NCBI GenBank assembly: GCA_964404175.1 | Contig: CAYOJA010000001.1 | Location: 29,506 to 93,505, forward strand | DNA length: 64,000 nt | Direction of reading: 5' to 3' | Source of the DNA: an uncultured Thiobacillus sp. | GTDB lineage: Bacteria > Pseudomonadota > Gammaproteobacteria > Burkholderiales > Thiobacillaceae | Part shown: positions 26,577-62,994 of the stretch, in pieces | Position numbering within the stretch: position 1 is the stretch's first letter | How the letters are laid out: every line of letters begins with the position of its first letter | Made by a program: the position numbers and the translations under genes | Notes under the pieces: model-generated | Database searches by the model: none | The model's input: the letters and a program-made list of their open reading frames with translations, nothing else | Told to the model about the DNA's origin: nothing

Positions 26577-26590
26577 GATGGACTCCTTGT

Positions 26591-30938: not shown

Positions 30939-30941
30939 CGA

Positions 30942-32754: not shown

Positions 32755-32755
32755 G

Positions 32756-37776: not shown

Positions 37777-37781
37777 GTTCT

Positions 37782-42753: not shown

Positions 42754-43647
42754 TCAACTCTCTTCCAGCCACTTACGCAACTCCAATGATGCCAAGTCGA
42801 CGAATGCCCGCAGCTTGGGCGGCATGAAGCGCTGGCGAGGGTAGACGAGGTGGATCGGGTCGGCCTTCGCATGCCACTCGGGCAGCACGCGCACTAGCCT
42901 GTCACCATCGCTTTCATGTCGGCAGAGGTAGAGCGGCAACAGGGCAACGCCTTCACTGGCCAGCGCCATCGAGCGGATCACGCCGATGTCGTTCACCATC
43001 ACCTGGCCGGACATGGGTATGGTAACGCTGTCACGCTTGTTGCTCAGCGTCCAGGCCTCCTTGCCTAGCGGCGTGAACTGCAGGCAGCTGTGCTGGGAAA
43101 GCGCCTGCGGCGTAGTTAGCTTCGGAGCTGATTTCAGATAGCCCGGGCTGGCAAAGGGTGCCCAGCGCGCGATGCCGACGTTCTTGGCGACCAGCGTTGA
43201 GTCCTTCAGGCTGCCTGTCCGGATGGCCACATCGACGCCCTCGGCGATGAGATCCACATAGCGGTTCATCAGTACCATCTCGATACTGACCTTGGAGCAA
43301 TGGTGCCGCATCTGGTTGATGATCTCGGCCAAGATGAGGTCGCCGACGTCCGCAGGCGCCGTCACTCGCAACAGTCCTTTCGGTTCGCCAGCCGATTCGG
43401 TCACTGCGGCTTCCGCATCGAGCATGTGGCCCAGCCCGGTCGACGCGTGCTGGTAGTACAACTCGCCGGCTTCGGTCAGGTGCAGGCGGCGCGTGGTCCG
43501 CTGCAAGAGAGTGACCCCCAAACGCCTTTCCAGGCGCGCAACGCGGGTGCTAACCGTCGAGGTCGGCAGGCCAAGCAGTCGGGCCGCCGCGCTGAAACTC
43601 CCGGCTTCAACTACCTTGACGAAAACTGCAGCTTCGTTGAGATCCAT
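42754..43647 (-). CDS. LysR-family regulator (CrgA/DmlR-like)
   Basis: FVKVVEAGSFSAAA..L HTH, LLQRTTRRLHLTEAG, PPKLRAFVD. Confidence 0.95.
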   Translation of the reverse strand: MDLNEAAVFVKVVEAGSFSAAARLLGLPTSTVSTRVARLERRLGVTLLQRTTRRLHLTEAGELYYQHASTGLGHMLDAEAAVTESAGEPKGLLRVTAPADVGDLILAEIINQMRHHCSKVSIEMVLMNRYVDLIAEGVDVAIRTGSLKDSTLVAKNVGIARWAPFASPGYLKSAPKLTTPQALSQHSCLQFTPLGKEAWTLSNKRDSVTIPMSGQVMVNDIGVIRSMALASEGVALLPLYLCRHESDGDRLVRVLPEWHAKADPIHLVYPRQRFMPPKLRAFVDLASLELRKWLEES

Positions 43648-43743
43648 TTTTCATTTAATTGAAAAGTATTTCCATATTTAACCATCTAGTCGAGGAAATG
43701 TCTGCCCTCTACAGTACGAACCATCAACCCAAGGAGAGCAGTC

Positions 43744-44610
43744 ATGAAAAAACTCGCATTCATCAAACGCAGCAACGGCAGCCACTGGGTCGGCGACGGA
43801 TTCCCGGTGAGGAGCATCTTTTCCTATAACGATATCGCAGAGGAATTGTCGCCCTTCCTGCTGATGGACTACGCCGGCCCGACCGATTTCCCGCCGACCA
43901 CGCACAAGCTCGGCGTTGGCCAGCACCCGCATCGTGGCTTCGAGACGGTAACCATCGTCTACGAAGGCGGCGTTTCGCACCGTGACTCGTCGGGCGGCGG
44001 CGGCGCCATCGGCCCGGGTGATGTTCAGTGGATGACGGCTGCGTCCGGGCTGATCCATGAGGAATACCACAGCCCGGCTTTCGCCGAAAAAGGCGGAACT
44101 TTCGAGATGATCCAGCTCTGGGTCAATCTGCCTGCCAAGGACAAGATGTCGTCCCCCGGCTACCAGGGCATCACCACCGACCAGATTCCGGAAGTCGAGC
44201 TGCCCGGCCAGGCCGGCATAGCACGCATCATCGCAGGCCGTTACGGCGATGTGAGCGGCCCGGCGCGCACCTTCACCCCAATGAACGTCTGGGATCTGCA
44301 GTTGAAGGCCGGCCACCGCGTATCGCTCGACCTTCCCGAGGGCTATACAACGGCGCTCTTCGTGTTGCGCGGCGCCATTCGCACGAAGGACCACTACACC
44401 GTGCGCACTGCCGAACTGGCAGTCATGCAGCGCGCCGAAAGCCGCCTCGAGTTTGACGTGGCCGAAGACACGACGCTGCTGCTGCTGAACGGCGAGCCGT
44501 TGAACGAGCCTGTCGTCGGCCATGGTCCCTTCGTGATGAATACCCGCGAGGAAATCGTGCAGGCGATCAACGATTACAACAGTGGCCGCTTCGGACAAAT
44601 CGGCCATTGA
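43744..44610 (+). CDS. Pirin-family protein
   Basis: PFLLMDY, HPHRGFETVT, WMTAASGLIHEE, QLWVNLP. Confidence 0.95.
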   Translation: MKKLAFIKRSNGSHWVGDGFPVRSIFSYNDIAEELSPFLLMDYAGPTDFPPTTHKLGVGQHPHRGFETVTIVYEGGVSHRDSSGGGGAIGPGDVQWMTAASGLIHEEYHSPAFAEKGGTFEMIQLWVNLPAKDKMSSPGYQGITTDQIPEVELPGQAGIARIIAGRYGDVSGPARTFTPMNVWDLQLKAGHRVSLDLPEGYTTALFVLRGAIRTKDHYTVRTAELAVMQRAESRLEFDVAEDTTLLLLNGEPLNEPVVGHGPFVMNTREEIVQAINDYNSGRFGQIGH

Positions 44611-44645
44611 CCCAGCAGTCCCATCAACCCAAAAGGAGAATACCA

Positions 44646-45059
44646 ATGAGCAACACCGTCTTTGATCGAAATGATTTCGGCCATCTGGCAGGCCGTATTC
44701 TGATGGCAGTGATCTTCGTGGCCGCCGGAATTGGCAAGCTGACCGCCTTTCAAGGCACTGTCGGCTATATCGCAAGCCAAGGGGTACCGCTGCCAAGCCT
44801 GGCCGCAGTCGCGACCATTTGTCTGGAAATCGGTGGCGGCATGATGCTGATCCTGGGTTTCAAGGCACGCTGGGCCGCCGCTGCTTTAGGCCTGTTCACC
44901 ATCGTTGCCGGTCTGATATTCCACAACTTCTGGGCCGCCTCACCTGACCAGTTCCAGAATCAGTTGATCCACTTCCAAAAGAATCTGGCGATGGCAGGCG
45001 GGTTGCTTTACCTGGTTCTGCACGGCAGCGGGCGTTACAGCCTGGGAAAGCGTGGATGA
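44646..45059 (+). CDS. DoxX-family membrane protein
   Basis: GRILMAVIF..GIGK, EIGGG, FQKNLAMAGGLL. Confidence 0.92.
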   Translation: MSNTVFDRNDFGHLAGRILMAVIFVAAGIGKLTAFQGTVGYIASQGVPLPSLAAVATICLEIGGGMMLILGFKARWAAAALGLFTIVAGLIFHNFWAASPDQFQNQLIHFQKNLAMAGGLLYLVLHGSGRYSLGKRG

Positions 45060-45229
45060 ACTGATACCTAGATTTTCCCGACCTACCTGTTGCTGATCGA
45101 GAGTTACGGCAAGGAGAGGTCGTGAAAAACCGCGAAGTGCTGGATTCCCAGCGCTAATCGGTAACGGATTTCACTGCCGATTTAGCGGAGGAATCCATGT
45201 TTGAAACCTAACTTGAGAAGGAGAGAATC

Positions 45230-45871
45230 ATGGCAAGTGAGCCTATTCGTGATCAAAAGAACGATCAACTGCTGACACCGCAAAACGCCGCTTTCATCGT
45301 CATCGACTACCAGCCGGTCCAGGTGAATTCGATCGCCTCGATGGATCGTCAGCTGCTGGTCAACAATATTGTCGGCACGGCAAAGGCTGCTGTGGCCTAC
45401 GGCCTGCCGATCGTGCATTCCACGGTTAACGTCAAGACTGGCCTCAACAAGCCGCCCATCGCGCAGTTGCGCAAAGTGCTCGATAAATTTCCCACTGTTG
45501 ACCGTACCACGATCAACTCGTGGGAGGACGTGGAGTTTCGCAAGGCTGTTGAGGCCACCGGCCGAAAGAAACTCATCATGACAGCACTCTGGACCGAGGC
45601 CTGCCTGACGTTCCCGGCGCTGGATGCGCTCGCGGCAGGTTACGAGGTTTATGTCGTTGCTGATGCCGTCGGCGGTACGTCGGTGACAGCCCACGAGATG
45701 GCCCTGCGCCGGATCGAACAGGCAGGCGGCAAGATGATCAGTGTGCCGCAGTTGTTCTGTGAACTTCAGCGCGACTGGCAACGCAAAGAAACCGTACCGG
45801 CCTTCATGAACCTGTTCATCGAAACAGGTGGAACCGCCGGCCTCCAGTTTGGATATGACAAATACGAGTAA
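45230..45871 (+). CDS. Isochorismatase-family hydrolase (YcaC-like)
   Basis: IDYQP, RTTINSWED, ALWTEACLTFPALDA. Confidence 0.92.
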   Translation: MASEPIRDQKNDQLLTPQNAAFIVIDYQPVQVNSIASMDRQLLVNNIVGTAKAAVAYGLPIVHSTVNVKTGLNKPPIAQLRKVLDKFPTVDRTTINSWEDVEFRKAVEATGRKKLIMTALWTEACLTFPALDALAAGYEVYVVADAVGGTSVTAHEMALRRIEQAGGKMISVPQLFCELQRDWQRKETVPAFMNLFIETGGTAGLQFGYDKYE

Positions 45872-45932
45872 TCGTCCGACGCTCCCACCCGCAAGGGTCG
45901 GGGCGCCTCGCTTTCACCGAAAGAGAATTCCC

Positions 45933-46541
45933 ATGTGCAAACTACTGCAACTCAAGACCAGTCTTTTCTCCAGCGGCGGACAGTCTAGCCAACTCTCTGA
46001 CGCCTTCGTCGCCGCCTGGCGTGCCAGCCACCCCGGAGCCAAGATCGTGACTCGCGACTTCGCCATCGATCCTGTGCCGCATCTCGACGGGGCGTGCTTC
46101 CAGGCATTTCTCGCCAAACCGGAGGAGCGCAGCGCAGAGCAGCAGGCCAGGGTCGCTTACTCTGACGCGCTGATCGAAGAAGTGAAGGCTGCCGATGTCC
46201 TCGTCATTGGTTTGCCGATGTACAACCTTGGCATGCCATCGATGCTGAAAGCTTATTTCGACCACATTGCCCGCGCTGGCATCACCTTCCGCTATACCGA
46301 GAATGGTCCGGAAGGATTGCTCTCTGGCAAGAAGGTTTATGTCTTTGCGGCGCGCGGCGGTCGCTATGTTGGAACGCCTTTCGATGTCCAGACCGGGTAT
46401 GTACGCAACTTTCTCGGCTTCATCGGCATTACCGATGTCGAGTTCGTCTATGCCGAGGGGCTGAACATGGGCGAAGAGAGCAAGGCTGCCGGGTTGAATA
46501 CCGCACACGCAGAGCTGGTGCGCATCGCTGCCTGGGCGTAA
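45933..46541 (+). CDS. azoR: FMN-dependent NADH-azoreductase
   Basis: PMYNLGMPSMLKAYFDHIARAG.TF.Y, ARGG, FIGITDV. Confidence 0.92.
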   Translation: MCKLLQLKTSLFSSGGQSSQLSDAFVAAWRASHPGAKIVTRDFAIDPVPHLDGACFQAFLAKPEERSAEQQARVAYSDALIEEVKAADVLVIGLPMYNLGMPSMLKAYFDHIARAGITFRYTENGPEGLLSGKKVYVFAARGGRYVGTPFDVQTGYVRNFLGFIGITDVEFVYAEGLNMGEESKAAGLNTAHAELVRIAAWA

Positions 46542-46595
46542 ATTGCACCGTTAGCAAACCAGGTGTTTAGGCACACCAGAGCCGACGAGAATCCT

Positions 46596-47180
46596 ATGGG
46601 AAAGAACCGACTGGAAGCTTTCAGCGACGGCGTGCTGGCCATCATCATCACGATCATGGTGCTGGAGATGAAGGTGCCGCACGGCGAGACCCTGACGGTC
46701 TTGGCGCTGGTAGCACCCGTGTTTCTCAGCTATATCCTGAGCTTTGTCTACATTGGCATCTACTGGAACAACCATCATCACCTGTTGCACACAGTGAAGC
46801 GGGTTTCGGGCCCCATTCTGTGGGCCAATCTGCATTTGCTGTTTTGGCTTTCGCTGTTTCCTTTCGCGACGGGATGGATGGGGGAGAACCATTTTGCGCC
46901 GCTACCCACCGCACTTTATGGAGTCGTCTTGCTCATGGCATCGCTAGGCTATCTGATATTGCAGTGGCTAATCGTTTCTAATGAGGGTGAACGATCCTTG
47001 CTCAAGCGAGCCATTGGGCACGACTGGAAAGGGAAGGTTTCCGTGCTTTTCTACATTACAGCCATCGGCGCCGCGTTTTGGCTACCCAGGATAGCGCAAT
47101 TGCTCTACATCGTTGTTGCGTTAATGTGGTTGTTTCCTGACCGTCGCATCGAGCGGATCCTTCATCAAGAAGAAGACTGA
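46596..47180 (+). CDS. TMEM175/DUF1211-family K+ channel
   Basis: RLEAFSDGVLAIIITIMVLE, YWNNHH. Confidence 0.9.
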   Translation: MGKNRLEAFSDGVLAIIITIMVLEMKVPHGETLTVLALVAPVFLSYILSFVYIGIYWNNHHHLLHTVKRVSGPILWANLHLLFWLSLFPFATGWMGENHFAPLPTALYGVVLLMASLGYLILQWLIVSNEGERSLLKRAIGHDWKGKVSVLFYITAIGAAFWLPRIAQLLYIVVALMWLFPDRRIERILHQEED

Positions 47181-47517: not shown

Positions 47518-48384
47518 ATGTACATGGACCAACGGAACGACAGCCCGCAACAACGCCTTACCCTTCTGGAGCTTTTGCTGGTTTGGGAAGGGCGTATTTA
47601 CCGTTCGCGGGTATGCGAGCTGTTCGGTATTGGTTTGCCACGGGCCAGCCAATGGATCAAGGAAATCCGCGACCTGAACCCCACCTGGATGCAATGGGAC
47701 AGCAAGTCCAGGAGCTACTTCGCTACGCCTGATTTCTATAAGCGGTACACCAAGGCTACTCAGGCAAACATTTCCGAATCGCTTTCCCGCTACCTGTCCA
47801 TGGTCGGGCTTCCCTATGCGTCGGCCATGGAAGAAGGCGGTTCAGTGGCCTGGTCGGCGACACCAAGCATCACCGCCCCGGCACCCAAAACATTTGCAAG
47901 CCTCGGGAATGCGATCAGACAGGCAAAGGCCGTCGAAATCGAATACATGTCGATGAGCGAACCGGCTCCTCATCGCCGCACGATCTATCCGCACAGCCTG
48001 GTTCTCGCCGGCCGCAGGTGGCATGTGCGCGCCTACAGCGAAGCGCATCAGGAATTCCGGGATTACGCACTGGGGCGAATCCTCGAGGTGAAGCCTTTAG
48101 CGCGTCCCGCGGATCGCACCCGATTCGATGACTCCGACTGGTACACCAAGGTCAAGGTACGCCTGGTCGCCCACCCTGACCTTTCTCCAGCACAGGCCAG
48201 AGTGATCCAGGCCGAATACTTCAACGGGACAGCGAGCCGCGTCGAAACCTGCCGCGCGGCGCTGGTCCCCTATTTCATTCAGGACATACACGCTGCGACG
48301 GACACGAAGATCCAGCATGCGCCCGAGTACCTAATCGCCGTTGAAAACGCACGGGAGGTATCCAAGTGGCTTTTCAACCGCTAG
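47518..48384 (+). CDS. wHTH-WYL transcriptional regulator, CapW/BrxR-like
   Basis: RLTLLELLLVWEGRIYRS..LFGI wHTH; IEYMSMS, IYPHSLV.AGRRWHVRAY, FRDYALGRI WYL domain. Confidence 0.9.
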   Translation: MYMDQRNDSPQQRLTLLELLLVWEGRIYRSRVCELFGIGLPRASQWIKEIRDLNPTWMQWDSKSRSYFATPDFYKRYTKATQANISESLSRYLSMVGLPYASAMEEGGSVAWSATPSITAPAPKTFASLGNAIRQAKAVEIEYMSMSEPAPHRRTIYPHSLVLAGRRWHVRAYSEAHQEFRDYALGRILEVKPLARPADRTRFDDSDWYTKVKVRLVAHPDLSPAQARVIQAEYFNGTASRVETCRAALVPYFIQDIHAATDTKIQHAPEYLIAVENAREVSKWLFNR

Positions 48385-48502: not shown

Positions 48503-49867
48503 ATGGAGTGGATTCCCCTAATAGCATCTACTCTGAGGCTGGTCGATCTGCACGACAGCGATCGCGCCTACGGTAGCCCACCCAACTTCACGCGTGAATC
48601 AAGGACAGGCAACTCTGACGGGATTTATCTCGATATTGCCTTTAACATTATCCATCGCCTGAAGTTGCTTGATCAAAGTACAAGCCAGGACTACCTCCCA
48701 TTCTCGGTCATCCTGAACGCCGTCAAGGAAGAGCGCCCTGAGACGGCTGATGCTGACGTTCAGTACGTCCTCAATGTACTGCGGCGGCCCTCTGAACTTT
48801 TCTATCTAACAAGCGTTGTCGGCCAACGGACAAAGGTCTGCCACTCGGAGAGACGCGAGACAGCACTTATCGAGAAAACCGATTACGCTGACGAATACAG
48901 GCTGTCGGCATCCGGCCGGCTGCTCCTGTCCTTGGCGAACGTGGCCCGAGATGCCACGTACTTGCGAGGCGATGCCTACAACCTACTGCATGCCATCGAA
49001 TTCAACGATTTCCCGAAGATCCTGACTTTCGCGGATGGCATCGTTGCTCAGCTACGAAACGAGATTCTGGAAGTGCGGTCCGCCCTGGAACGTGTCGGAC
49101 GAACAGAAACGGTAGACAAGTACCTGGACCGGCTTGATCAATACAAGCAGGTCGTCGAAGAAACCATCGGCATCGCCCAGCAAGCTGAATCCAGGCTGGA
49201 GCAAAGCGACGTTCTGGATGCATTCGAGCGCTGGCAGGAGGCGGCCGACATGGACCTCACCTTCGATTACCTGCGCAACCAGATCAACCATGTCCGCCAG
49301 GTCCTGCTGATTTTCAACCGTCTCCTCTCAGAGCTAGTGAGCCTGGCGTTGCAGGGGGAGCGTTCGGCGGTGCCGCCGCCCTCGTTCATCGAAACCGCGG
49401 CGCAATTCATTCGTTCCCCGCTCACGCCAGAGAAAGAGAGTTTCCTGCTCAACCAGTGGGGGGCAATGATTCTGGAAACACCATTTCACTCGGCTCTCGA
49501 TGGGCTCGGCGCAATCAAGCTGCGTACGATGGCTGAAGCCGTCCAGCCCATGGCCTTCCTGGACGAAACAGTCGAGACCGTTTCCGAGTTGGGCAAGGCG
49601 AGGTTCCTGGCGATGCATGGTCCAGAGATTGCCGCTGCGCTCAAGTCCGGACCACTACGCCTGTCCGACGCAATCGAGCGCGGCTGGTTCATGGTGGAAC
49701 AAGAGATGATGCTGGGAGATCTCGTTGGGATATTCGTTGCGCCAAACAGCATCCCTATTGCCGGCAACATCATGATCGGCGTCAGCACAACGCTCGACAG
49801 CAGAGTAGCTGGAGGCGGTGAATTCCTGTTCACCGACATCGAAATCACCGCAGTGGAGGAATCATGA
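48503..49867 (+). CDS. Putative kleisin-like subunit (JetA/MksF-like)
   Basis: YRLSASGRLLL wHTH-like end followed by a long helical region; position and size in the operon; inference only. Confidence 0.55.
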   Translation: MEWIPLIASTLRLVDLHDSDRAYGSPPNFTRESRTGNSDGIYLDIAFNIIHRLKLLDQSTSQDYLPFSVILNAVKEERPETADADVQYVLNVLRRPSELFYLTSVVGQRTKVCHSERRETALIEKTDYADEYRLSASGRLLLSLANVARDATYLRGDAYNLLHAIEFNDFPKILTFADGIVAQLRNEILEVRSALERVGRTETVDKYLDRLDQYKQVVEETIGIAQQAESRLEQSDVLDAFERWQEAADMDLTFDYLRNQINHVRQVLLIFNRLLSELVSLALQGERSAVPPPSFIETAAQFIRSPLTPEKESFLLNQWGAMILETPFHSALDGLGAIKLRTMAEAVQPMAFLDETVETVSELGKARFLAMHGPEIAAALKSGPLRLSDAIERGWFMVEQEMMLGDLVGIFVAPNSIPIAGNIMIGVSTTLDSRVAGGGEFLFTDIEITAVEES

Positions 49868-50646
49868 ACAACTCGGATATGGGCCGCGTCCACGCCTGGC
49901 TGTTACGCCATCGCATCGCCGAAACGAAGTCGAGCCGGCGAGCCATCAGCAAGGAGGAGCGCGAGATCGCCGGCCTGCTGCTCAACGCAGATCCCGCCCT
50001 GCGCATGCAGTTCGAGGAGATGCTGGAGGGTCAGGGATTGCAGTTAGTCTCTCTCACGTCATTCGATGCGAAGGGCATAGCGTCCGGCAGCACCGTGTTT
50101 ATGCTTGCCAGGAATCCCGACGCCGCCCCCCCTTTCTGGGGAACCGACCGTCTCGTGAGCCGCATGCTTCTCGTGAAAGGCATCGACACCGACGCGGAAG
50201 CCAAGACCTGGTTCACCCAGCTATGGTTCGTTTTGCTTGATTTGCTATACACGCGCAGAAACCGTGGCCCCAATGCCATGCAGGACTGGGTGGATACCGC
50301 TTTCTCCAAGGAAATCTTCATTGATTCCGTCAGGGACTATCTGAATGATCGCGTCAGAAAGATCGACCCATCCACGTTAGAAACCGACCGGGTGCACAAG
50401 ACCATGACCGGCCTAAAGGAAGGCGCGATCGCCCAGGCCTGCTACGCCTTTATCGAGTTGATGGTTGACGCCGGGCTGCTAGAAGAAATCGACAAGGACA
50501 TTTTCAGGCAAAGCCTGCTCTTTGCGTACGAGATGAAGTGCAATTTTGATCGACAACTCAAGACGCTGCTGCCCGAACAGGACAAGTTCCAGGCCGCAAG
50601 CGAGATACTGGTCGAGCACACCGACGAAGAAACGGAGGCTAAGTAA
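49864..50646 (+). CDS. Putative KITE/winged-helix subunit (JetB/MksE-like)
   Basis: 260 aa, C-terminal wHTH-like FIELMVDAGLLEE...FRQS; ATGA and TAATG coupling to neighbours; inference only. Confidence 0.55.
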   Translation: MNNSDMGRVHAWLLRHRIAETKSSRRAISKEEREIAGLLLNADPALRMQFEEMLEGQGLQLVSLTSFDAKGIASGSTVFMLARNPDAAPPFWGTDRLVSRMLLVKGIDTDAEAKTWFTQLWFVLLDLLYTRRNRGPNAMQDWVDTAFSKEIFIDSVRDYLNDRVRKIDPSTLETDRVHKTMTGLKEGAIAQACYAFIELMVDAGLLEEIDKDIFRQSLLFAYEMKCNFDRQLKTLLPEQDKFQAASEILVEHTDEETEAK

Positions 50647-53600
50647 TGGCTGCGATATCACGGATCCAGGTCGCCAATTTCCTCACCGAGGGATACATGA
50701 CGGGAAAGGAATGGGCCCCGCTCTATCGTGGCGAGACCTTCCGTCTGTTCGGACAGCCCACCGCCATGCAGATCGACAATGGCGGCGGCAAGACGAGTCT
50801 GACCGAGGCTTGCCTGTATGCACTGACCCGACATCGCCAACTGAAATCCAGGGTAGAGGATCGGGTTGCGCCACCCGACAAAGGCTGGACCCACATACGC
50901 TTTGAGTTCGTCGAAAAATCGCATGAGGAGGATATCCTGCAGACGGAACTGATCACACTGGATCCCGAGGACATTCCTGGCATCACTTATGTCGTAGGCA
51001 TGTGCTGGAGCCGCACCAAGGATCCCAGCTTCTATTCCTACCAAGGGACTCTGGAGGATGCCCCTTGCTATATCCGGGAACAGAACAAGCTTGCCCTCAT
51101 CGCCAACGACGTCTTCCGAAAGTCTGTGGAGGGCATGCCGGGCGCCAGATGGAATCGTTGGCGCAATCAGGCAGAGTGGCTGGAGGAGATCAGGCAGTTC
51201 ACCAACATCGAGGTGCTGCTTCAGAACGTGGAGTTCCAGCTGGAGGGTGCTGGTGACTACTCGGCCATGATCACCAAAGTGAAGCCGGAAGGCGCTGAAA
51301 CCTACGATACCGCTTTCTTCCGGCAATTTGTCGCCCCTGAGCTGCTCAAGCATGCCATGGGCGCGGAAGGTGATCCAGACGAACTCGGATTCGAGGACAC
51401 CATCCTCAAGACGCTGAAGCCGGCGGCCGACGCCTTGTTAGATATCAACAGGCGCCAGCTTGAACTAGAGCAGACGAAGGAGGCCCTCCGGAAATTCGAA
51501 CCGGTGCTGCAGAAGGCAAGTGAGGTCGTAACCGCCAACGCAGAGTACCAGCGCGAGATGAACGCGCTCGCACGAAACGCGGCCATCGTCCACTCCCTGT
51601 CCATGGCGTCGCCGTTGCCGGGCATTCCCGTTATTCCGCCGGGAACCCAGTGGGCAAGTGACAAGCGCGTAATGACCGCCCTCGGGCACATGGTCATCGA
51701 CAAGAAGCATGGAACGGTGATCACAGACGAGGGTCTGGCCGCGTTGATCGGTGTGCCTACCAATGAAATCAACAAGCGCTCTGATACCAGCAACATCGTT
51801 ATGCTCGACTCCGAAACGATTGGACTCAGCGAGCATCTCAAATCGACCAAGCCTAGTGAGCCATCCGGAGGGGAGGGGCAAGAGGAAGCACAACCCTTTG
51901 AAAATAAACAGCATCTCAAAAGATTTGGACGCGGAGGTCGACGCTATTACACCAAGTGCTATCCGCTGAAGCCGGCCCTTTCTATCAGTTCCGCGTGTTC
52001 AAACCTTGCCGGCGCGAAAACTTCAGGACTTACCGACGTCCTTACCCGCGCCTTCGGTATCGCCGCAGACGAGATCGACACCAATCCCTACCGGCATCGG
52101 CTGCGCAAACTTACGTTGAGCCTGGACGAAGCCAGAGGTCGCCAACGCACGGCTCAAGGTGACTGCGACCGTTACCAGGCTTCATACGAAAAATTGCTCA
52201 CCGAGAGCCGGGATGCCAAGGAAAACCAGGCCGCCTATGAAGGTTTCATGGCGAGAAAACATGAATTCCCCGAGGAATACTGGAGCACCCCACTCGCTGC
52301 GCAAGAGTGGGCAGAAGCCGCCGCAAAGAAAGCCGAGGAGGAACGCACTGAGCATGTCACCCTCAGCGCCAAACGCCAAAGCGGCTACGGCTTGTGGCAG
52401 AAACTGGCCGAGAAGCATGGGCAAACTTCGCTGCAGGAGGCGCTGGCAACCCTGAGCGAACTGCATGCTAAAGCGGTGGAGGCCAAATCCACGGCCGAGG
52501 GCGACCTCGGTCAGACCAATGCACAACTTCGTAACAAGCGCACGGAACTGGAAAGGGATGAAAGAAATCTTGGCGTTGCCACAAAGCGCCTGGAGAAGCT
52601 GAGTGGACTTGCGGCCTACCGACCCAAATTCATAGAGATCTTCGGTGACGTTGACCCGCTGGGCCTGAGCCCTCAGGCCGAGATGCAACGCGTACAAGGC
52701 GACAAATCGAAAAATGACGGTCAGCTGCAGGATGCCGATACCAAGAAGCAGGAGCTGCTGGGCCTGCAACCCATGGCGAAGCTGTTTCTTGAGATGTTTG
52801 GCGACGCCGGTCCCGATGGCCTAGACCCAGTGGGGGATCTGCAAAGCCACTTGGAAGCCATCGCTACTGAAGATGGTGTCGTGGCGGATCATCAGCCTTT
52901 GGTCGAGGCTTTGACCTACTTCAGAGAGCAGCTCCCTGGCATTTCGCCAGATGACTGGCTCGCCCACGCGTCGGATCAGCGCCGAATGCTCATCGAGGAG
53001 CGTGGTAGCAATCAGAACAATATCCGCGACCTCACGGGTGAATTGGAGGACCTGGACTCATTCGGGGCTGCCGATGACCGCGTCTACGCCAAAGCCCTGA
53101 AAGTCCTGGCCGACAATGGCATCAGATTTGACCGGCTGCACGACCTTGCTTCGAGAACCGTGTCAGGCGACCGCCTGGAGACCTGTCTGTCCCTCTTCTC
53201 TGCTGCTTTGTCAGCCCCGGCTATCGCATCCGTGGAGGAGGCCGCGAACGCTGCACGCTTGTTGGAGCAGTCCGAGCTGACGGTGCCGATTTTCCTCAAG
53301 CCAGCCCTGGAATCGTTCATTCTGGACGGAGAAATTCATCAGTCCGGTGAAACAGCCCACGCATTGTGGGTTGGCCGTCGCACGCGGCAGGTCGACATCA
53401 TTCTGGACCCCGCCCTCATCGCGGAGGAGAAGAGGCGGATCGAGGAACAGATCGGAAATCTTACCCGGCGCAACGAACAGATCGGCGAACTTGTCGCGGA
53501 TATTTCCGAGGACAGCGCCGCCGTCAAGACGGCGCTGAGTGCGAAAGAAGCGATCCGCCGTGATTCCGAGCGCATTCATGACGAGGCCGCCAGAAAACGA

Positions 53601-55649
53601 GACGCCCTCCAGGCGAAGAAGACCTGGTTTGAAGAGAGGGCGTCGACCAGAGCTCTTGAGGCGATCTCTTCCATGAAGCGTTACATCAAGGCCGGTGGTG
53701 AGATCCGGTATTTGGAACTCGTGGAAACCATCATCCCCGGCCTGGAAAACGAGAAAAAAAGCATCAGCGAACGGCTTGCCGACCTGCGCGCGCAAACGGA
53801 GGAAGACGCACTTCGAGCCCTGCACGCGGCTAAGGATTTTCAACGCGAAGGCGGCGAGGATGCGCTGGCCGCAGCTAAGACAGCGGCCACGGATCTCTCG
53901 TTAAAGGTGAAGTCGCTCAAGTACGCAGTGGATGAACTGCAGGGCAAGGTGGACAACGAACTGAGGGAGGCTTTCAACAAAGCGGCCGAAATTCTTTCCG
54001 AGATCAGCAAGACTTTCCCAATCGACAAGCGCGACCTTGAAGTCTCGATCCTGTTCGAAGAGGAAGGTTTCGTCGAGTTCATGAAGACCACCGATTCGAA
54101 AAGACAGCGGCTCGAAGCTGAACTGGTGACGGCCCAGAAGCGACTGCAAGGCATAGCCTTCGACCGCGCAGCACGGTATATCGACGCTACTCGATCGGGT
54201 GAACGCAGCATCGCCGACCGTATCGCTGACGCCCAGGAAAAAAGAGACGAGGCGGATGAGGCCGCGAAGAACGCGGGCCGCGACATCACCCAAATCGAAG
54301 GCGAGATGGCCACCATGACGCCTTTCATGGAGACGATGCACGAGATGGTTTCCTCGATTCGGGTTCAGTACGCCAAAGTCTCGCTGTTTTCCGAGGACAT
54401 CCTCCGTCTCATGCAGGCTTCACCGTTCTCCGATCCCGAGATCCTGGTTCATGCAGAAACAATTCGTATCGCCTGTACGGGTGAGATTCCGAGCACCGCC
54501 CAGGATATCAAGATCGCCATGCTCAACCTGAGACAGTGCGTCGAGGAACTTGAGATCAACACCGACGAGCTCCGGAGGTTTGGCGAAGATAAGCGGAGGC
54601 GGTTGAGCGAATACATCCAGCGTCGTGATGAATTCTGTGACCGTGCAAGGTCCGGTGAGATCCGCGGCTTGAACCAGTTGGAGATCTCGGCCATCGCAGA
54701 AGCGAAGACTATTGAGCAGCTGCAGCGCATTCAGGAAACCCAGGACGCAATCCAAGCCCAGATCACCGAAAGCGAAGCCAGTCTGGCCAAGATCCGCGAG
54801 GCCATGGAAGCCAACAAGGAGGCTTCCATCGACAATCTGGCCAAATTCGCTCGAGACGCCAAGTTGAGCCTCGACATCCTGGAACGGGTCATGAAAAAGA
54901 CCCCCAATGCCAGGTTCTACATCGAGGCTCCCGTCGCGGACGAAAGCGAGATTGGGCGAATCATCGCCGAACTTCTTGAACAGATCGAGGACAAGGAGCG
55001 CGTCGTGCGCGAGCGGGGCGTCATTCTCCTCAACGATGAGATCGAACGCAAGACGGCAGATTACAAGCGGCTGATCCACGACACCATCTACAAACGGATC
55101 TTCTCCGCTCGGGACAAGGACGAAAACTCCATCGTTCCACGAGTCTATTTCACCCACGCATCGATTCGTGGCAAGGACAAGGTGCCCTTCACTGACCGTG
55201 GCCTTTCAACGGGGCAACGAACAGCGCTGGCGATGATGTGGTTGATCAAGCAGGCGGAATTTGCCATCGCCCGAGCAGCATCGCTCTACGGCACCCGGAA
55301 GGAACGGAAGGCGGCGCTGAAGGGCGCGCAGCGGATCATGTTCTTCGACGGTCTGTTCTCCAACCTGTCCAACGAGGACTACATCAATGACGCATTCCAG
55401 GGATTGCGCGGCGTCGGCGACAACTTTCAGCTTATCGGCCTGATCCACAATCCCTATTACGTGAACAACAAGGACATCTTCCCCGTGCATCTGGTCGGCA
55501 GGAAGAAAGTCGCCAACAAGGGTGATCCTGGGCGGGAGCGCGTGTTTGTCTCTGTTGAGCCCTGGCAGGACAGCAACGGGGTGATTCTCTACACCAGCGC
55601 CTACAAGCACAAAGCCCATATGGCCGGCGAGGAGACCGTGAATGCCTGA
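50646..55649 (+). CDS. SMC/MukB-like ATPase (JetC/MksB-like), 1667 aa
   Basis: ISRIQVANF, Walker A DNGGGKTS, long heptad-rich arms around a central hinge-like region, signature LSTGQ, Walker B-like IMFFDGLFSN, FQLIGLIH. Confidence 0.85.
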   Translation: MAAISRIQVANFLTEGYMTGKEWAPLYRGETFRLFGQPTAMQIDNGGGKTSLTEACLYALTRHRQLKSRVEDRVAPPDKGWTHIRFEFVEKSHEEDILQTELITLDPEDIPGITYVVGMCWSRTKDPSFYSYQGTLEDAPCYIREQNKLALIANDVFRKSVEGMPGARWNRWRNQAEWLEEIRQFTNIEVLLQNVEFQLEGAGDYSAMITKVKPEGAETYDTAFFRQFVAPELLKHAMGAEGDPDELGFEDTILKTLKPAADALLDINRRQLELEQTKEALRKFEPVLQKASEVVTANAEYQREMNALARNAAIVHSLSMASPLPGIPVIPPGTQWASDKRVMTALGHMVIDKKHGTVITDEGLAALIGVPTNEINKRSDTSNIVMLDSETIGLSEHLKSTKPSEPSGGEGQEEAQPFENKQHLKRFGRGGRRYYTKCYPLKPALSISSACSNLAGAKTSGLTDVLTRAFGIAADEIDTNPYRHRLRKLTLSLDEARGRQRTAQGDCDRYQASYEKLLTESRDAKENQAAYEGFMARKHEFPEEYWSTPLAAQEWAEAAAKKAEEERTEHVTLSAKRQSGYGLWQKLAEKHGQTSLQEALATLSELHAKAVEAKSTAEGDLGQTNAQLRNKRTELERDERNLGVATKRLEKLSGLAAYRPKFIEIFGDVDPLGLSPQAEMQRVQGDKSKNDGQLQDADTKKQELLGLQPMAKLFLEMFGDAGPDGLDPVGDLQSHLEAIATEDGVVADHQPLVEALTYFREQLPGISPDDWLAHASDQRRMLIEERGSNQNNIRDLTGELEDLDSFGAADDRVYAKALKVLADNGIRFDRLHDLASRTVSGDRLETCLSLFSAALSAPAIASVEEAANAARLLEQSELTVPIFLKPALESFILDGEIHQSGETAHALWVGRRTRQVDIILDPALIAEEKRRIEEQIGNLTRRNEQIGELVADISEDSAAVKTALSAKEAIRRDSERIHDEAARKRDALQAKKTWFEERASTRALEAISSMKRYIKAGGEIRYLELVETIIPGLENEKKSISERLADLRAQTEEDALRALHAAKDFQREGGEDALAAAKTAATDLSLKVKSLKYAVDELQGKVDNELREAFNKAAEILSEISKTFPIDKRDLEVSILFEEEGFVEFMKTTDSKRQRLEAELVTAQKRLQGIAFDRAARYIDATRSGERSIADRIADAQEKRDEADEAAKNAGRDITQIEGEMATMTPFMETMHEMVSSIRVQYAKVSLFSEDILRLMQASPFSDPEILVHAETIRIACTGEIPSTAQDIKIAMLNLRQCVEELEINTDELRRFGEDKRRRLSEYIQRRDEFCDRARSGEIRGLNQLEISAIAEAKTIEQLQRIQETQDAIQAQITESEASLAKIREAMEANKEASIDNLAKFARDAKLSLDILERVMKKTPNARFYIEAPVADESEIGRIIAELLEQIEDKERVVRERGVILLNDEIERKTADYKRLIHDTIYKRIFSARDKDENSIVPRVYFTHASIRGKDKVPFTDRGLSTGQRTALAMMWLIKQAEFAIARAASLYGTRKERKAALKGAQRIMFFDGLFSNLSNEDYINDAFQGLRGVGDNFQLIGLIHNPYYVNNKDIFPVHLVGRKKVANKGDPGRERVFVSVEPWQDSNGVILYTSAYKHKAHMAGEETVNA

Positions 55650-56826
55650 ATTCGAGGAGCGAATTCAGCAATGGTTTCTTAAACGAACCAAGGGCAGCGT
55701 CACGGGCAAAGTTCTCACGAAAGGAGTCGTCGCGAGGTTGCGCTCCGAGGTGATCAATGACCCCGTCGCGATCAGAAAAGCACTGCTGCTTCTGCGAGAC
55801 GAGGGTCATCTGGTGTTCAGCGCAGACGAGCGTGGCACGCCCGTTAGTAGCTATATTTCGGTAATAAAGCCGACAGCGGATGTCGAGGAACATCTCCAAC
55901 GCTGGTCTCTTGTCCTTGAGGAAAAGGGCATTAGTCAGGCTGATGCCGGTGCGCTATTATCCGTGGCAGATGCCATCAAGGATCTTCCGAAGGACGACAT
56001 GAGGCTTCTGCTGGATGGGCTAGTAAAGCTTCGCCATGATCAACTCCATTTGCTCGGCCAGCCAGCCTATATTGTGAGCGCGAAGTATTTGCTTGGCTCC
56101 TCGAAGATGCTCACCCGTATCCCGAGACGTTCTCTCAAGGCGTACGGCATCGAGCCTCGGCAATTTCCCTCCCACCCGCTCTATGTTGTCGTCGCGGGTT
56201 GCGCCTCCCCCGAAACGGTGGTTCTAGTGGAAAATCCTGCCGCGTTCGAATTGGCGATAAGCACGCAAGCGGTGAATCGATGTGCCTTCATCGCGACGTT
56301 CGGGTTTGGTCTGAGCAAGTCAGAAGAAGACTGCGGGAACCAGCTCACAAAGATGGTCGAGGCACGGTTTTCCGGTGCGATCACACTGACACGTGAGGGG
56401 TCCATGTGCCCGACGGCGAAAGAGCTTCTGAGTCACCCCAAAATCACCTTCTGGGGTGACCTTGATGTCGCGGGGCTCGAGATCTATCTGCGACTCAGGA
56501 AAGCCATCCCGCACCTTCAACTCAGTGCACTCTATAAACCAATGGTTGCTTCAGTCGACAAGCCAGCAGCATCGCATCCATACGTTGCATTGGCAGGTAA
56601 GGAACGACAGCCAACGATGCCAAGGTCAGGTAAGAAAGACGATCCCGTGCTTGCCAGGCTTCTTGATATCTGCGTCTCCCGAGGCGTTGATCAGGAGCAG
56701 GTTTCGCCCTCGGACGTCGAGTCTCTGTCACCGTTTGGACTTGATGCGAGGCACTTTGAAGAACCCGTGTACAACGTGTCTATCCCGACATTGGTAAAGA
56801 CACTCGAAGCGGGCGATTGTGCATGA
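55642..56826 (+). CDS. Toprim nuclease (JetD/MksG, DUF2220/DUF2399-like)
   Basis: VSAKYLLGSSK, VLVEN, FWGDLDVAGLEIY, VDQEQV. Confidence 0.85.
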   Translation: MPEFEERIQQWFLKRTKGSVTGKVLTKGVVARLRSEVINDPVAIRKALLLLRDEGHLVFSADERGTPVSSYISVIKPTADVEEHLQRWSLVLEEKGISQADAGALLSVADAIKDLPKDDMRLLLDGLVKLRHDQLHLLGQPAYIVSAKYLLGSSKMLTRIPRRSLKAYGIEPRQFPSHPLYVVVAGCASPETVVLVENPAAFELAISTQAVNRCAFIATFGFGLSKSEEDCGNQLTKMVEARFSGAITLTREGSMCPTAKELLSHPKITFWGDLDVAGLEIYLRLRKAIPHLQLSALYKPMVASVDKPAASHPYVALAGKERQPTMPRSGKKDDPVLARLLDICVSRGVDQEQVSPSDVESLSPFGLDARHFEEPVYNVSIPTLVKTLEAGDCA

Positions 56827-56840: not shown

Positions 56841-57407
56841 ATGGCATCAACGTCGGAAACGATTGAAACACTGCGGGGCGCACTTGCCACGTACACCGAT
56901 GAGCGCAAGCTTCTTGAACTCATCGACGAGAGTCTTTCCCTACTTCGTTCCCGCTATCGGCAATTCAAGGCCGAATTTACCGACGAGTCCATTCAATTCC
57001 TGAAGTCGCTTACCGTCGTTCGAGATGCCCTACGTGAATTTATCGAAGCCGTCGAGGACAAAGCCTGGGTTCATTCCCGCGATGATGCTCAGGAACTCGC
57101 CTGTACATTCGGTGAACTCGGTGAGCGGCTTACTCCGCACTTCGTCGCAAAACGCGCAGCAAAGGAAACGCGTGAGCTCCTCGCGACGGCCCAGTCGCTG
57201 CCGTTCGCGGCGGTCAATGTAGGCCAGAATGATTTCCGCCGACGTATTTCCCAGCTTGAAGCAGCTGGCAAGAAATGCCAGAAGTGCGGATCCAAATTGG
57301 CGCTACGAGAAAGCCAGCACGGTTACTTTTGGGGGTGTAGCACTTTTCCCCAGTGTTTTGGGAGGCAGCGGCTTTCCAGGGAAGAATCCCAACTGCTCGA
57401 TCAATGA
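56841..57407 (+). CDS. Helical protein with C-terminal topoisomerase-IA-type C4 zinc ribbon
   Basis: CQKCGSKLALRESQHGYFWGCSTFPQC. Confidence 0.8.
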   Translation: MASTSETIETLRGALATYTDERKLLELIDESLSLLRSRYRQFKAEFTDESIQFLKSLTVVRDALREFIEAVEDKAWVHSRDDAQELACTFGELGERLTPHFVAKRAAKETRELLATAQSLPFAAVNVGQNDFRRRISQLEAAGKKCQKCGSKLALRESQHGYFWGCSTFPQCFGRQRLSREESQLLDQ

Positions 57408-57704: not shown

Positions 57705-58145
57705 GTGCCCGTGGCCTCCATAGAAGAACCCAACAATCAGGATCATCCTGTCACGCTCTTCGCACACATTGCGACACGATTCGAACAAATCGAACTGTCC
57801 CACTGGACGGCCGTTGTGTTTGCATGGCTTGCCCGTTATGACGGGATCGATCGATGCTATTTTGAAGACGAAGAGGAATCCCCAGCCCATGAGGTGCTTC
57901 ATTGCATCGCCGAACTGGATCATGGGACTACAGACGACGAAGTAGCCCACGCGCTATCTCATCTTGAATTCCTTACTTGGCGTGTCCGCCATCCCGAAAC
58001 CGCGGAGTGCTGGGATCCGCTCTCACTATCCCTCAGTGATTTCATCGGCGGGGATTTATCGCCCAATTGCTGGAAATGGGAAGGGACCTTCCCGGATTCA
58101 CCCGTAATTGCCTCATGGCTCATCGAACAGCTCCCACACCGCTGA
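57705..58145 (+). CDS. Acidic hypothetical protein coupled to traI (position of GGI yaf)
   Basis: GTG start downstream of promoter B; TGA overlaps the traI ATG (TGATG). Confidence 0.65.
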   Translation: MPVASIEEPNNQDHPVTLFAHIATRFEQIELSHWTAVVFAWLARYDGIDRCYFEDEEESPAHEVLHCIAELDHGTTDDEVAHALSHLEFLTWRVRHPETAECWDPLSLSLSDFIGGDLSPNCWKWEGTFPDSPVIASWLIEQLPHR

Positions 58146-60217
58146 TGTCCGGTGATTGGCTGCTCATTGCCGCTGGAGCCTTGGGAGTAGGCGGCGTATG
58201 GGTCGTTTGGCGTATTGCCCGCCACACCGACCACGCGGCGTCCGACCATTCAACTCCATCCGGTAGCGATTCAAGGGCAGCCAACCATATTAAGGTTCTC
58301 CCTGGCAAAGCCGTCCTGGATCAACTCAACCTTCAAGCCCTGGTCGACGGATGTCGTGACCGCATGGGCTTCGACTACACCCTGTTCCACCAAGACTGCA
58401 TGCCCGTCATCGAGCGGGCTGCGGAATGGACTCAACTGCTACCAGCCTCGGAATCGCATCATCACGCGCAGCCCGGTGGCCTCATGACCCATATGATGGA
58501 GTCGGCAGCACACGCGCTACGCTTCCGGCAGGGCTATCTGCTTCCGGTCGGAGCAGCCCCCGAGGAAATCCCGGCTCGCAAGCACCGCTGGACTTACGCG
58601 GTGTTCCTTGCCGCGCTACTGCATGACATTGGAAGGCCTATGGCCGATATCAACGTCCAAGTTCTCCGATCGAGAAAACCCTGTGGCAAGTGGCAGCCTC
58701 TTGCTGGCTCGATGCTGGATCAGGGGTTGACGCATTACACGTTGAATTTCGAGATTACGCGGGATTACGATCTGCACAAGAAACTGCCCATCGTGCTGTT
58801 CCAGCGGCTCGTTCCTTCCCATGTTCTCGCTTGGCTTGCCGATGACGTACAGCTCATGGGTGATTTGACGAGCTACCTTTCGGGGGACGATCAAGACAAG
58901 GGTGTGTTGCGAGAGATCGTCGCACGCGCCGACTCCGAGTCGGTCAAGAACAACCTGATGCAGGGACCGCGCACTCGCTTTGCCTCCGCCCGGTCGGTGC
59001 CATTGATCGAACGCCTGATGCAAGCCTTGCGCCTGATGCTGGAAGAAGGGCGACTGAGCTTGAATAGGGCGGGGTCCCATGGTTGGGTTTACGACGGAAA
59101 AATCTGGTTCGTGTCCAAGCGGCTGGCCGACGAGGTACGCCAGTTCCTGACCGATCGCGAAAGCGGGGAGGGCATACCTGGCAAGGATAAGAACGATCGC
59201 CTTTTCGATACCTGGCAAGAGTACGGTGCCTTGATCCCAACCAGTGAGAACCGTGCTGTGTGGCAGGTCATGGTCAGTCTCGATGAAGGGTGGGAACAAA
59301 AGCTGACCGTGCTGTGCTTCTCGCTCGACAAACTGTTCCAGTCCCCGGTTCTTTACCCGGAAATCATGAGAGGCAAGATCATTGCCGGAAAACAGGATGC
59401 CTCATACATCCAACCGCTCGATTCGGAATCCGACCTAACTATTGGTTCCATGAGTGATTCTGGCGTTGAGCCAGCCACCAACCCATTAGAGGATCCGGCC
59501 AACCAGCTGTCACTCGTCATACCGCAGCCAGATCCTACCCCCTCGCCGAACCCCGAAGAACAGCCGAAGCGAGCCAGCACGGCTCTCCCTCCCATTCGCC
59601 CGCTGGCACAGCCCAGAGCGGCCGCTCTATCTGAACCTGGGGGCGCGGCTGAGGACGCAGGCTTTCTCGATGAAGATGACGCCGCGATCAAACATTCACC
59701 AAAACCCAAGCCCCCTACTGCAGCAGCATTGAAGCCGGTTGCACCTGCAGGGCAGACAGCGGCCAGGCCCAAGTCTGGCTCGAAAAAGAAGGAACCCTCT
59801 GGTGCAGCCATGCGGTTCATGCGCTGGGTTCAGGAAGGCCTCTCGGAAGGCAGCATGCCGTACAACCGCGCGGACGCCATGATTCACTTCGTTGACGAAG
59901 GAATGATGCTGGTTTCCCCAGTGATCTTTCGCAAGTTCGCCGAACTGTTCGGAGAGGAGGGCGATGGCACACCATCGGATCGAGCGGGGAGCAAGCTGGG
60001 GACCGGCATCCAGCGCCAGGTTACCAATGCTGGCTGGAATCTGGTTACCGGAGAGAAGAAGAGCAACATCCAGCGTTACATGGTGATCGGCGCCGATGGC
60101 GAGGGCAAGAAACTGATCTCTGGCGTGGTCATACTGGATCCTGTTCGATTCGTGAATCCACTTCCGCCGAATAATCCCTGCATTGTCAGGTTCGACAAAC
60201 CCATCGAACACGTCTGA
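58145..60217 (+). CDS. traI: MOBH HD-domain relaxase TraI
   Basis: PASESHHHAQPGGL..H, LLHDIG, N-terminal hydrophobic helix, Pro-rich linker, C-terminal HFVDEG..LVSP.IF. Confidence 0.92.
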   Translation: MSGDWLLIAAGALGVGGVWVVWRIARHTDHAASDHSTPSGSDSRAANHIKVLPGKAVLDQLNLQALVDGCRDRMGFDYTLFHQDCMPVIERAAEWTQLLPASESHHHAQPGGLMTHMMESAAHALRFRQGYLLPVGAAPEEIPARKHRWTYAVFLAALLHDIGRPMADINVQVLRSRKPCGKWQPLAGSMLDQGLTHYTLNFEITRDYDLHKKLPIVLFQRLVPSHVLAWLADDVQLMGDLTSYLSGDDQDKGVLREIVARADSESVKNNLMQGPRTRFASARSVPLIERLMQALRLMLEEGRLSLNRAGSHGWVYDGKIWFVSKRLADEVRQFLTDRESGEGIPGKDKNDRLFDTWQEYGALIPTSENRAVWQVMVSLDEGWEQKLTVLCFSLDKLFQSPVLYPEIMRGKIIAGKQDASYIQPLDSESDLTIGSMSDSGVEPATNPLEDPANQLSLVIPQPDPTPSPNPEEQPKRASTALPPIRPLAQPRAAALSEPGGAAEDAGFLDEDDAAIKHSPKPKPPTAAALKPVAPAGQTAARPKSGSKKKEPSGAAMRFMRWVQEGLSEGSMPYNRADAMIHFVDEGMMLVSPVIFRKFAELFGEEGDGTPSDRAGSKLGTGIQRQVTNAGWNLVTGEKKSNIQRYMVIGADGEGKKLISGVVILDPVRFVNPLPPNNPCIVRFDKPIEHV

Positions 60218-60218
60218 C

Positions 60219-62279: not shown

Positions 62280-62994
62280 GAATCCCGGTCTCTACGACAG
62301 CAATGTGGCAGTCGCCTTTCTGTGGCCATTGAAATGGCTTTTTGGGACGCTCTCGCTATATGTCATGCTTGGCCTGATCGCCCTCACCGCGGCTTTCCTG
62401 TTTGCCAAATATCAATGGCTGGATCCTGTGCAAGCTGCCGACGCTTTGCTCCAGTCGGAAACCGTTCGCGTCAAAGAGCTTGTACGGCCAGGAAGCCACA
62501 CTGCAGGCCTTTCCACGCTTACTGAGAAGACCCAACAGTGGACTTACTGGCTTTTTTTCAAGGCGACATCACTCCATGAAGCCACCTATGCCTATTTCTC
62601 CGCGTATCCGGTCAACGAGGTTGACCGGATGTACCTCAGCCAGTTCGTTGCGCGCAATGCACGGGAAATCTACCTGGCGATGAACGTGATTCAGGTCTAC
62701 GGAATCAGGATTGGCTTCGTACTGGCTGCGAGCCCTTTGTTTTTCCTGTTGTATGTCTTGGCTGGCGTAGACGGTCTGACCGAGCGTTATATCCGCCGCG
62801 CGTGCGCAGGACGCGAATCGGCGGATCTGCACAAAATTGGGCGCCTAGCGAAGCTGATGTTCTTCGCATCCGGGGTCACGTTATATCTCTGCCTGCCGGT
62901 TGCACTGAGCCCGTTTTGGATCATTGCACCCTTAGCGCTTGTTTTTGCGGTGTCCACACGGGTTCAGTGGCAGTTTTACAAAAAATATTTTTAA
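62269..62994 (+). CDS. DUF4400-like conjugation membrane protein
   Basis: DGLTERYIRRACAGRESA; TM helices; follows traD; GTG start. Confidence 0.75.
   Translation: MASRNPGLYDSNVAVAFLWPLKWLFGTLSLYVMLGLIALTAAFLFAKYQWLDPVQAADALLQSETVRVKELVRPGSHTAGLSTLTEKTQQWTYWLFFKATSLHEATYAYFSAYPVNEVDRMYLSQFVARNAREIYLAMNVIQVYGIRIGFVLAASPLFFLLYVLAGVDGLTERYIRRACAGRESADLHKIGRLAKLMFFASGVTLYLCLPVALSPFWIIAPLALVFAVSTRVQWQFYKKYF

Follow-up and report, generated by a model that had tools for sequence, protein, structure and literature searches.

A predicted ORF6N/KilA-N-like domain in the arm of the SMC-like protein of a diverged Wadjet-like cassette

The stretch analysed here (the window; 64,000 nucleotides) comes from an uncultured Thiobacillus sp. 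(GenBank assembly GCA_964404175.1, contig CAYOJA010000001.1, positions 29,506 to 93,505 of the forward strand), and all nucleotide positions given below are those of the window unless another locus is named. On the forward strand it encodes an SMC-like (JetC-like) ATPase of 1667 amino acids (50646-55649), the third gene of a co-directional and overlapping set, and the arm of this protein carries a predicted globular domain that resembles the ORF6N, KilA-N and Bro-N domains. The set appears to be a Wadjet-like SMC system with a KilA-N/ORF6N-type arm domain, and its family is recognised by present annotation tools through JetD alone. We favour, with a probability of about 0.5, the reading that an ORF6N/KilA-N/Bro-N-like domain is fixed in the SMC arm of a diverged Wadjet-like system and adds a point of contact with DNA close to the head-proximal joint.

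A first-pass annotation of the window had pointed to a segment that breaks the coiled coil of the SMC-like protein. The translation of 51708-51992 (forward strand) is exactly the peptide quoted there; it corresponds to residues 355-449 of the 1667-residue open reading frame and forms the core of the ORF6N-like domain. The break itself was borne out by structure prediction with AlphaFold2, in which an alpha/beta unit lies between long helices at residues 247-321 and from 481 to 539 or beyond. The borders given in that annotation were too narrow, for conservation and the model place the full domain at residues 322-486 (approximately 165 residues; 51609-52103, forward strand), an extent to which the hhalign and Foldseek results described below also contribute. 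The model of residues 315-500, built with 54 homologous segments, was confident (predicted local distance difference test (pLDDT), 77; predicted template modelling score, 0.71). Its first part consists of helices at residues 335-347 (approximately), two strands at 349-360, two helices at 361-378 and a strand pair at about 385-393; a disordered loop (400-432), a strand (437-439) and three helices (441-499) follow. The model of residues 1-540 had a pLDDT of 60 and low three-dimensional confidence, and therefore its secondary structure and the broad trend of its Foldseek matches alone were used. Its secondary structure matches that of the shorter model and consists of a head lobe reaching to about residue 233, long helices at 247-282 and 285-321, the domain, and the long helix from 481 to 539 or beyond. 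The head-proximal arm helices (residues 247-321; 51384-51608, forward strand) thus put approximately 75 residues between the head and the domain by secondary structure, with low confidence in their three-dimensional arrangement. Since long helices flank the alpha/beta unit on both sides, the helical arm is truly interrupted at the domain.

The domain is framed by two invariant motifs, PLPGxP at the entry and DTNPYR at the exit, and its invariant residues include G356, Y439, F470, D478, N480, Y482 and R483. Basic residues are conserved at columns 340, 341, 353, 354, 399, 425, 429, 432, 433, 468 and 483. Residues 425-486 have a net charge of +7, whereas the rest of the SMC-like protein is acidic. 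A variable, low-complexity, disordered linker lies inside the domain (residues 399-424; 51840-51917, forward strand; pLDDT below 50), differs among close homologues, and is bordered by a duplicated motif of approximately 10 residues (ETIGLSEHLK and QPFENKQHLK). In the alignment of 34 diverse members, the loop of approximately 30 residues and the duplicated motif are confined to the subfamily of the window protein; distant members and two close homologues have one copy of the motif and no loop, and the motif of the distant members reads SQVIDxxCDL. The loop and the two motif copies have the look of a short tandem duplication inside the domain. On the opposite strand of the arm, a conserved C-terminal segment (residues 1327-1360; 54624-54725, forward strand) has many invariant residues (R1327, F1330, G1341, L1342, E1346 and I1350 in 93 homologues), which sets it apart from the arm around it. 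It lies approximately 65-90 residues before the C-terminal head lobe, mirroring the position of the domain, and it may pack against the domain from the opposite arm helix.

The relationship with ORF6N was examined by several profile and structure comparisons. When the 54 homologous segments were scanned singly against Pfam, ORF6N (PF10543) was the sole recurrent family (7 of the 54 segments; best E, 0.0036), other families being matched by one or two segments each. These matches, all below threshold, map residues 349-378 onto positions 3-32 of the 86-position profile. For a direct comparison, a tentative ORF6N consensus was used as bait alone, to fetch a real ORF6N protein, and the relatives of that protein carry PF10543. 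The first relatives obtained were 83-99% identical to one another and unfit for a profile; a diverse set was therefore drawn from IMG/VR instead (80 loci, 42 unique sequences). With hhalign, the profile of the 54-sequence segment matched the 42 ORF6N sequences with a probability of 84% (P, 7.6e-6; score, 39.5; 123 columns), and a 93-sequence version with a probability of 88% (P, 3.4e-6; score, 41.5; 125 columns). A profile of 29 distant members, from which the subfamily of the window protein was excluded, gave a probability of 90% (P, 1.6e-6; score, 41.1; 109 columns). Overall, the probabilities ranged over 84-91%, P over 1.1e-6 to 7.6e-6, the scores over 39.5-41.7 and the aligned columns over 106-125. 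As controls, other 186-residue pieces without overlap with the segment scored at most 14.6, the reversed ORF6N profile 16.5, and 30 column-shuffled ORF6N profiles at most 19.6; the likeness to ORF6N thus exceeds what chance would give.

The hhalign alignment spans the whole ORF6N domain and the next helix, with one register in all three comparisons (ITDEGLAxLxGxxTxxLN against MLDxDLAxxYxVxTxxLN, and RGGRRY against GGxRxxPYAF); this is also the register that the first-pass annotation had proposed. The ORF6N motifs are found in the family as VLITDEGLAxLxGxETxRLN, in which I359, D361, L364, L367 and N376 are invariant or near-invariant, and as RGGRRY followed by Y439. The domain is like ORF6N in the colinear order of a strand pair, a helix-turn-helix-like LAxLxGxxTxxLN, a G-G-R-R leading into a strand, and a helix with RAF. 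It is unlike ORF6N in being embedded in a coiled-coil arm, whereas ORF6N stands at the N-terminus of small phage and conjugative-transposon proteins, and also in its disordered loop of approximately 30 residues with the duplicated motif (in the subfamily of the window protein) and its family-specific invariant DTNPYR end. A Foldseek search of the domain model against BFVD gave 153 matches at E <= 10, and the best 50 of these 153 were almost all annotated as Bro-N, KilA-N, antirepressor or "repressor domain". The top matches in the PDB, which were not significant, include the N-domain of baculovirus Orf22 and the APSES domain of Mbp1 (template modelling score, 0.45, target-normalised), the latter being a KilA-N relative. 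In PHROGs the matches were weak and were led by BstA and anti-repressor; BstA, which contains an N-terminal KilA-N domain, was top for 5 of the 54 segments (best E, 0.095). Taken together, these profile comparisons and predicted models support a distant common origin of the domain with ORF6N and the KilA-N/Bro-N group. The likeness to ORF6N proposed in the first-pass annotation thus holds as remote homology, by hhalign, by the Pfam matches below threshold and by the Foldseek list; it does not extend to membership of the Pfam family.

The domain was not found to be restricted to the window protein. A search with the full protein gave 132 proteins with E <= 0.001; among the 120 matches listed, identity to the window protein was 40-100% and the length 1626-1684 amino acids, except for one apparent fragment (P0086; 1130 amino acids), and precomputed Pfam domains were present in none of these 120. 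The domain is conserved in every aligned homologue at the same position. A HMMER profile of the domain, run against 1.84 billion representative proteins, gave 80 matches; those accepted as genuine are SMC-like proteins, 1500-1923 amino acids long, with the domain at residues 315-500 (approximately), or fragments thereof; short matches in several stretches to leucine-rich-repeat proteins were rejected as false positives. Approximately 50 distant homologues (1500-1923 amino acids) all carry the domain, and it is universal in the alignment of 34 members, in which identity goes down to approximately 20%. Nothing anomalous was seen in the GC content of the segment. The idea that the domain was recently inserted by horizontal transfer was rejected, since the domain is found family-wide and lacks a compositional anomaly. 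Because it is universal in the family and constant in position, the domain is, as far as the alignments reach, an ancient and fixed feature of the family and not a recent addition. The first-pass annotation had called it an added module, while naming occurrence in all homologous arms as the finding that would speak against this; the domain is conserved in every homologous arm found, and it counts as an insertion solely relative to the general SMC/JetC ground plan. Note that, in the distant member P0129, residues 259-408 (the neck helix and the first half of the domain) match "mad8", the PADLOC model for component 8 of the methylation-associated defence system (E, 1.2e-4), which might reflect either a resemblance between coiled coils or a module in common.

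The assignment of the protein and its cassette to a Wadjet-like system was based on sequence motifs, profile matches and gene order. In the SMC-like protein, the Walker A motif NGGGKTS (residues 45-51; 50778-50798), the signature LSTGQ (residues 1520-1524; 55203-55217) and the Walker B/D-loop IMFFDGLFSNLS (residues 1564-1575; 55335-55370), all read from the translation on the forward strand, are invariant or nearly so in the 93 homologues. Between the ATPase motifs are approximately 1200 mostly helical residues, with a conserved, central, hinge-like region at residues 840-930 (approximately). The PADLOC model JetC3 matched the protein weakly and at residues 1-69 alone (E, 5e-4), and in six distant family members scanned with PADLOC the JetC models matched weakly or at the coiled coil. 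With the low-confidence model of residues 1-540, the top Foldseek matches included Smc5/6, MukB (probability, 0.96-0.97), Rad50, and the heads of type II Wadjet JetC; no match had E <= 0.001, the E values for the heads of MukB, Smc5/6 and JetC being at least 0.004. A search of the PDB sequences with the full-length family profile gave coiled-coil noise and no match.

The other genes of the cassette lie on the same strand. The first (48503-49867; 454 amino acids) occupies the position of JetA (kleisin) and the second (49864-50646; 260 amino acids) that of JetB (KITE); genes for proteins of 454-464 and 260-264 amino acids, respectively, stand at these positions in all loci examined. The mechanically called open reading frame of the first gene starts from TTG at 48341 (508 amino acids) and overlaps the regulator gene upstream. 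However, the methionine at 48503 is the likelier start, because the homologues (454-464 amino acids) align from it. Downstream of the SMC-like gene, a JetD-like Toprim nuclease of 394 amino acids is encoded at 55642-56826 (Pfam JetD_C, 29.8 bits, cut-off 22; PADLOC JetD1, 9.4e-18), and its WGDLD motif gives weak profile matches with MksG and JetD in the PDB. The cassette is kept in Pseudomonas stutzeri, Gallionella, a metagenome contig with the 71%-identical homologue P0003, and a 22%-identical relative (P0162), with JetD present. In P. stutzeri it adjoins a DISARM-like set (PLD nuclease, helicase and DrmE_C; locus L082, 14199-20953), and in P0162 an OLD-family Toprim ATPase/nuclease and several toxin-antitoxin pairs (locus L087, 13959-15779).

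The cassette is like Wadjet (JetABCD/MksBEFG/EptABCD, types I-III) in the A-B-C-D order and sizes, in the JetD Toprim nuclease, in an apparently SMC-type ATPase that has long arms, a hinge-like region in the middle and a predicted head resembling that of MukB, in the length of the ATPase, comparable to that of type III JetC (the PADLOC profiles for which are approximately 1470 positions long), and in its occurrence in defence islands and mobile elements. It differs from Wadjet in that no likeness to JetA or JetB could be detected for the products of its first two genes, in that JetC models match the first 50-70 residues or the coiled coil, in the globular domain borne on the arm, and in the attached BrxR/WYL regulator. 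In view of the JetD gene, the SMC-type motifs, the weak JetC matches, the head-type Foldseek matches and the conserved gene order, we infer Wadjet-like activity and regard the cassette as a strongly diverged Wadjet-like system whose membership is partly demonstrated. Our literature search found no link of Wadjet/JetC or SMC proteins with ORF6N. In the text reached by a keyword search, the type II Wadjet structure paper does not mention an insertion, a joint or an additional JetC domain; the literature on ORF6N, as far as its titles and abstracts go, consists of passing mentions.

According to the reading that we favour, the complex of the cassette would work as Wadjet does, loading on DNA and extruding it through ATP-driven movements of the heads and arms, and JetD would then cut foreign circular DNA. 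The conserved basic face of the domain (K425, R429, R432, R433, R468 and R483) would contact DNA just above the head clamp, and this contact would help to hold or anchor a DNA segment between the arms. DNA binding by the domain is plausible because these basic residues are conserved. From position alone, we infer that the domain is placed at the joint of SMC proteins, a break in the coiled coil close to the head that sets the orientation of the heads and can accommodate insertions (PMC5526789). As with the joints of Smc, cohesin and MukB, the discontinuity of the arm lies some tens of residues above the head, starting here approximately 75 residues past the head lobe; the known joints are short helices or loops, mostly on the C-terminal strand, whereas a folded domain of 165 residues on the N-terminal strand is predicted here. 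To our knowledge, the arms of known SMC proteins have no DNA-binding domain at a head-proximal position. We put forward more tentatively, as the less probable extension of this reading, that the family is a separate and as yet undescribed branch of Wadjet-like SMC defence, in which the arm carries a KilA-N/ORF6N-type DNA-binding domain at the joint as a third contact beside the head and hinge.

Several results weigh against the reading with a DNA-contacting ORF6N-like domain. The segment of the window protein itself has no match in Pfam even at E <= 10 and none in NCBIfam. The best ORF6N score among the homologues was 14 bits against a gathering cut-off of 27.8, so that no homologue passes and the domain, as judged from these sequence scores, falls short of formal ORF6N (PF10543) membership. 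The P values of hhalign refer to a single planned comparison and would correspond to an E of approximately 0.03-0.2 against all of Pfam, which is marginal, and alignment to ORF6N is poor over the middle part of the domain. The best 50 of the 153 BFVD matches had E values of 0.02-0.7 and template modelling scores of 0.3-0.48, though with probabilities of up to 0.99; Foldseek with the domain model found nothing below E 4 in the PDB. No stand-alone ORF6N or KilA-N protein was retrieved by the HMMER search of the 1.84 billion proteins, and we know of no experimental demonstration of DNA binding by ORF6N itself. The model of residues 1-540 is of low confidence as to the placement of the domain relative to the arms. 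As for the cassette, the 454- and 260-residue proteins have no match in Pfam, PADLOC, NCBIfam or the PDB sequences, and no JetA or JetB similarity was detected in them.

An ORF6N/KilA-N-like fold that does not bind DNA, and that serves at the joint as a structural or protein-docking module, is the most serious alternative, although we hold it to be only about half as probable as the reading just described. Such a module might bind the N-terminal part of the 454-residue subunit, JetD or the partner arm, and so set the geometry of the arm or relay a signal for cleavage. Several of the strongest invariants of the domain are hydrophobic, aromatic or structural and not basic (PLPGxP, G356, Y439, F470 and DTNPY), which fits docking, and the conserved residues 1327-1360 of the C-terminal arm could pack on the domain. 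Precedents for protein binding in this region are the kleisin, which binds the SMC neck, and AcpP, which binds the MukB joint. In SMC proteins, the neck and the joint close to the head set geometry and bind proteins (PMC5526789 for the joint). On the other hand, the basic columns are conserved and the C-terminal half of the domain has its net charge of +7 within an acidic protein, and the relatives of the fold are annotated as DNA-binding proteins; both points favour a DNA contact over docking.

The likeness to ORF6N would be convergent or generic if the segment, whether a helix-turn-helix or winged-helix-like insert of other descent or a fold peculiar to the family, just happened to share two short motifs with ORF6N. 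For this it can be said that no match passes any curated threshold, that the HMMER profile retrieves no ORF6N protein, that the BFVD matches had E of at least 0.02 and template modelling scores below 0.5, and that the central part is aligned with low confidence. However, two largely independent family profiles are colinear with ORF6N over 109-125 columns, in the same register and with about twice the score of any control; the Foldseek list is nearly pure in Bro-N, KilA-N and antirepressor proteins and is not a mixture of folds; and ORF6N is the sole recurrent Pfam family. We therefore consider convergence unlikely. As in BstA, a prophage abortive-infection protein, a KilA-N-type domain would here stand in a defence protein, but BstA is small and stand-alone and has no ATPase. 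A sensor or decoy that mimics a phage antirepressor, so that binding of a phage or plasmid protein switches the system on or off, would suit the frequency of ORF6N/KilA-N domains in phage antirepressors and BstA, the location of the cassette in defence islands and its own BrxR-type regulator, yet it is highly improbable, for the surface of the domain is well conserved down to approximately 20% identity save for the one disordered loop, although a decoy or sensor surface would be expected to diversify rapidly, tblastn of the segment against phage and plasmid records detected no match, and no ligand is indicated by the data.

A further irregularity of the arm was observed apart from the domain. 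The N-terminal arm contains an internal tandem repeat, residues 644-681 and 696-733 (52575-52688 and 52731-52844), in which the motif FxExFGDxxPxGLxP occurs twice, approximately 52 residues apart (local alignment score, 68; shuffled sequences, 23 +/- 4.6). Both copies are kept in the family consensus (FGDVDPxxLNPQ and FGxxDPxxLNP). The repeat (residues 644-733) may be a further discontinuity of the arm, e.g., an elbow.

The cassette is flanked by two additional genes on the forward strand. A BrxR/WYL-type regulator is encoded upstream at 47518-48384 (Pfam WYL, 3.3e-16), and together with the four genes described above it makes up a unit of five genes. The corresponding genes in the P. stutzeri (locus L082, 4995-5855) and Gallionella (locus L084, 4793-5653) loci encode WHD_BrxR, WYL and BrxR_CTD, the gene being divergently oriented in Gallionella; no such regulator was seen beside the cassette in the P0003 and P0162 loci. 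Regulators of the BrxR type have been described in BREX as well as in other defence islands. Downstream, a 188-residue protein with a topoisomerase-type C4 zinc ribbon is encoded at 56841-57407 (Pfam Zn_ribbon_Top1, 2.9e-9). A Zn_ribbon_Top1 gene of 200 amino acids (locus L086, 17479-18081) is also found 3' of the P0003 cassette, after an ISL3 transposase insertion, and the P. stutzeri and Gallionella loci lack such a gene; within the close subfamily it may be a fifth or accessory gene of the cassette.

The window is part of a conjugative element. Its reverse strand carries, at 22077-39041, genes for F-type type IV secretion (TraG_N, TraH, TraF, TraN, TraU, TraC and TrbI-like), and a TraI_2 relaxase (58067-60217), a coupling protein (60183-62279) and a DUF4400 protein (61939-62994) are encoded at 58067-62994 on the forward strand. 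With transfer genes on both sides, the anti-plasmid-type system sits inside a mobile element. When the plasmids of PLSDB and phage genomes were searched by BLAST, neither the operon nor the domain gave a match. Between the transfer genes and the cassette (42754-47180) are ordinary cargo-like genes, namely those for a LysR regulator (42754-43647, reverse strand), an isochorismatase-family protein (45230-45871), a flavodoxin-like/FMN reductase (45828-46541) and a homologue of TMEM175-type potassium channels (46563-47180).

Since the cassette lies on a conjugative element, one may ask how a system directed against plasmids leaves the element that carries it intact. As present tools recognise the cassette via JetD alone, surveys of anti-plasmid systems under-count the family. 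In current models of SMC motors, the arms are passive rods with a few hinges, and DNA is bound at the heads, the hinge and accessory subunits. A large family with a folded and probably DNA-binding domain in the arm would test what room and which contacts the path of DNA between the arms needs, and the domain, through its deletion or point mutants, would give access to the clamping of DNA in a nuclease system of the Wadjet type. If the separate branch with an arm domain is real, the third contact could hold one strand of the DNA loop in place or recognise a feature of the DNA, and so alter the measuring of DNA or the discrimination between foreign and self; the family would then be a natural experiment on what can pass between SMC arms.

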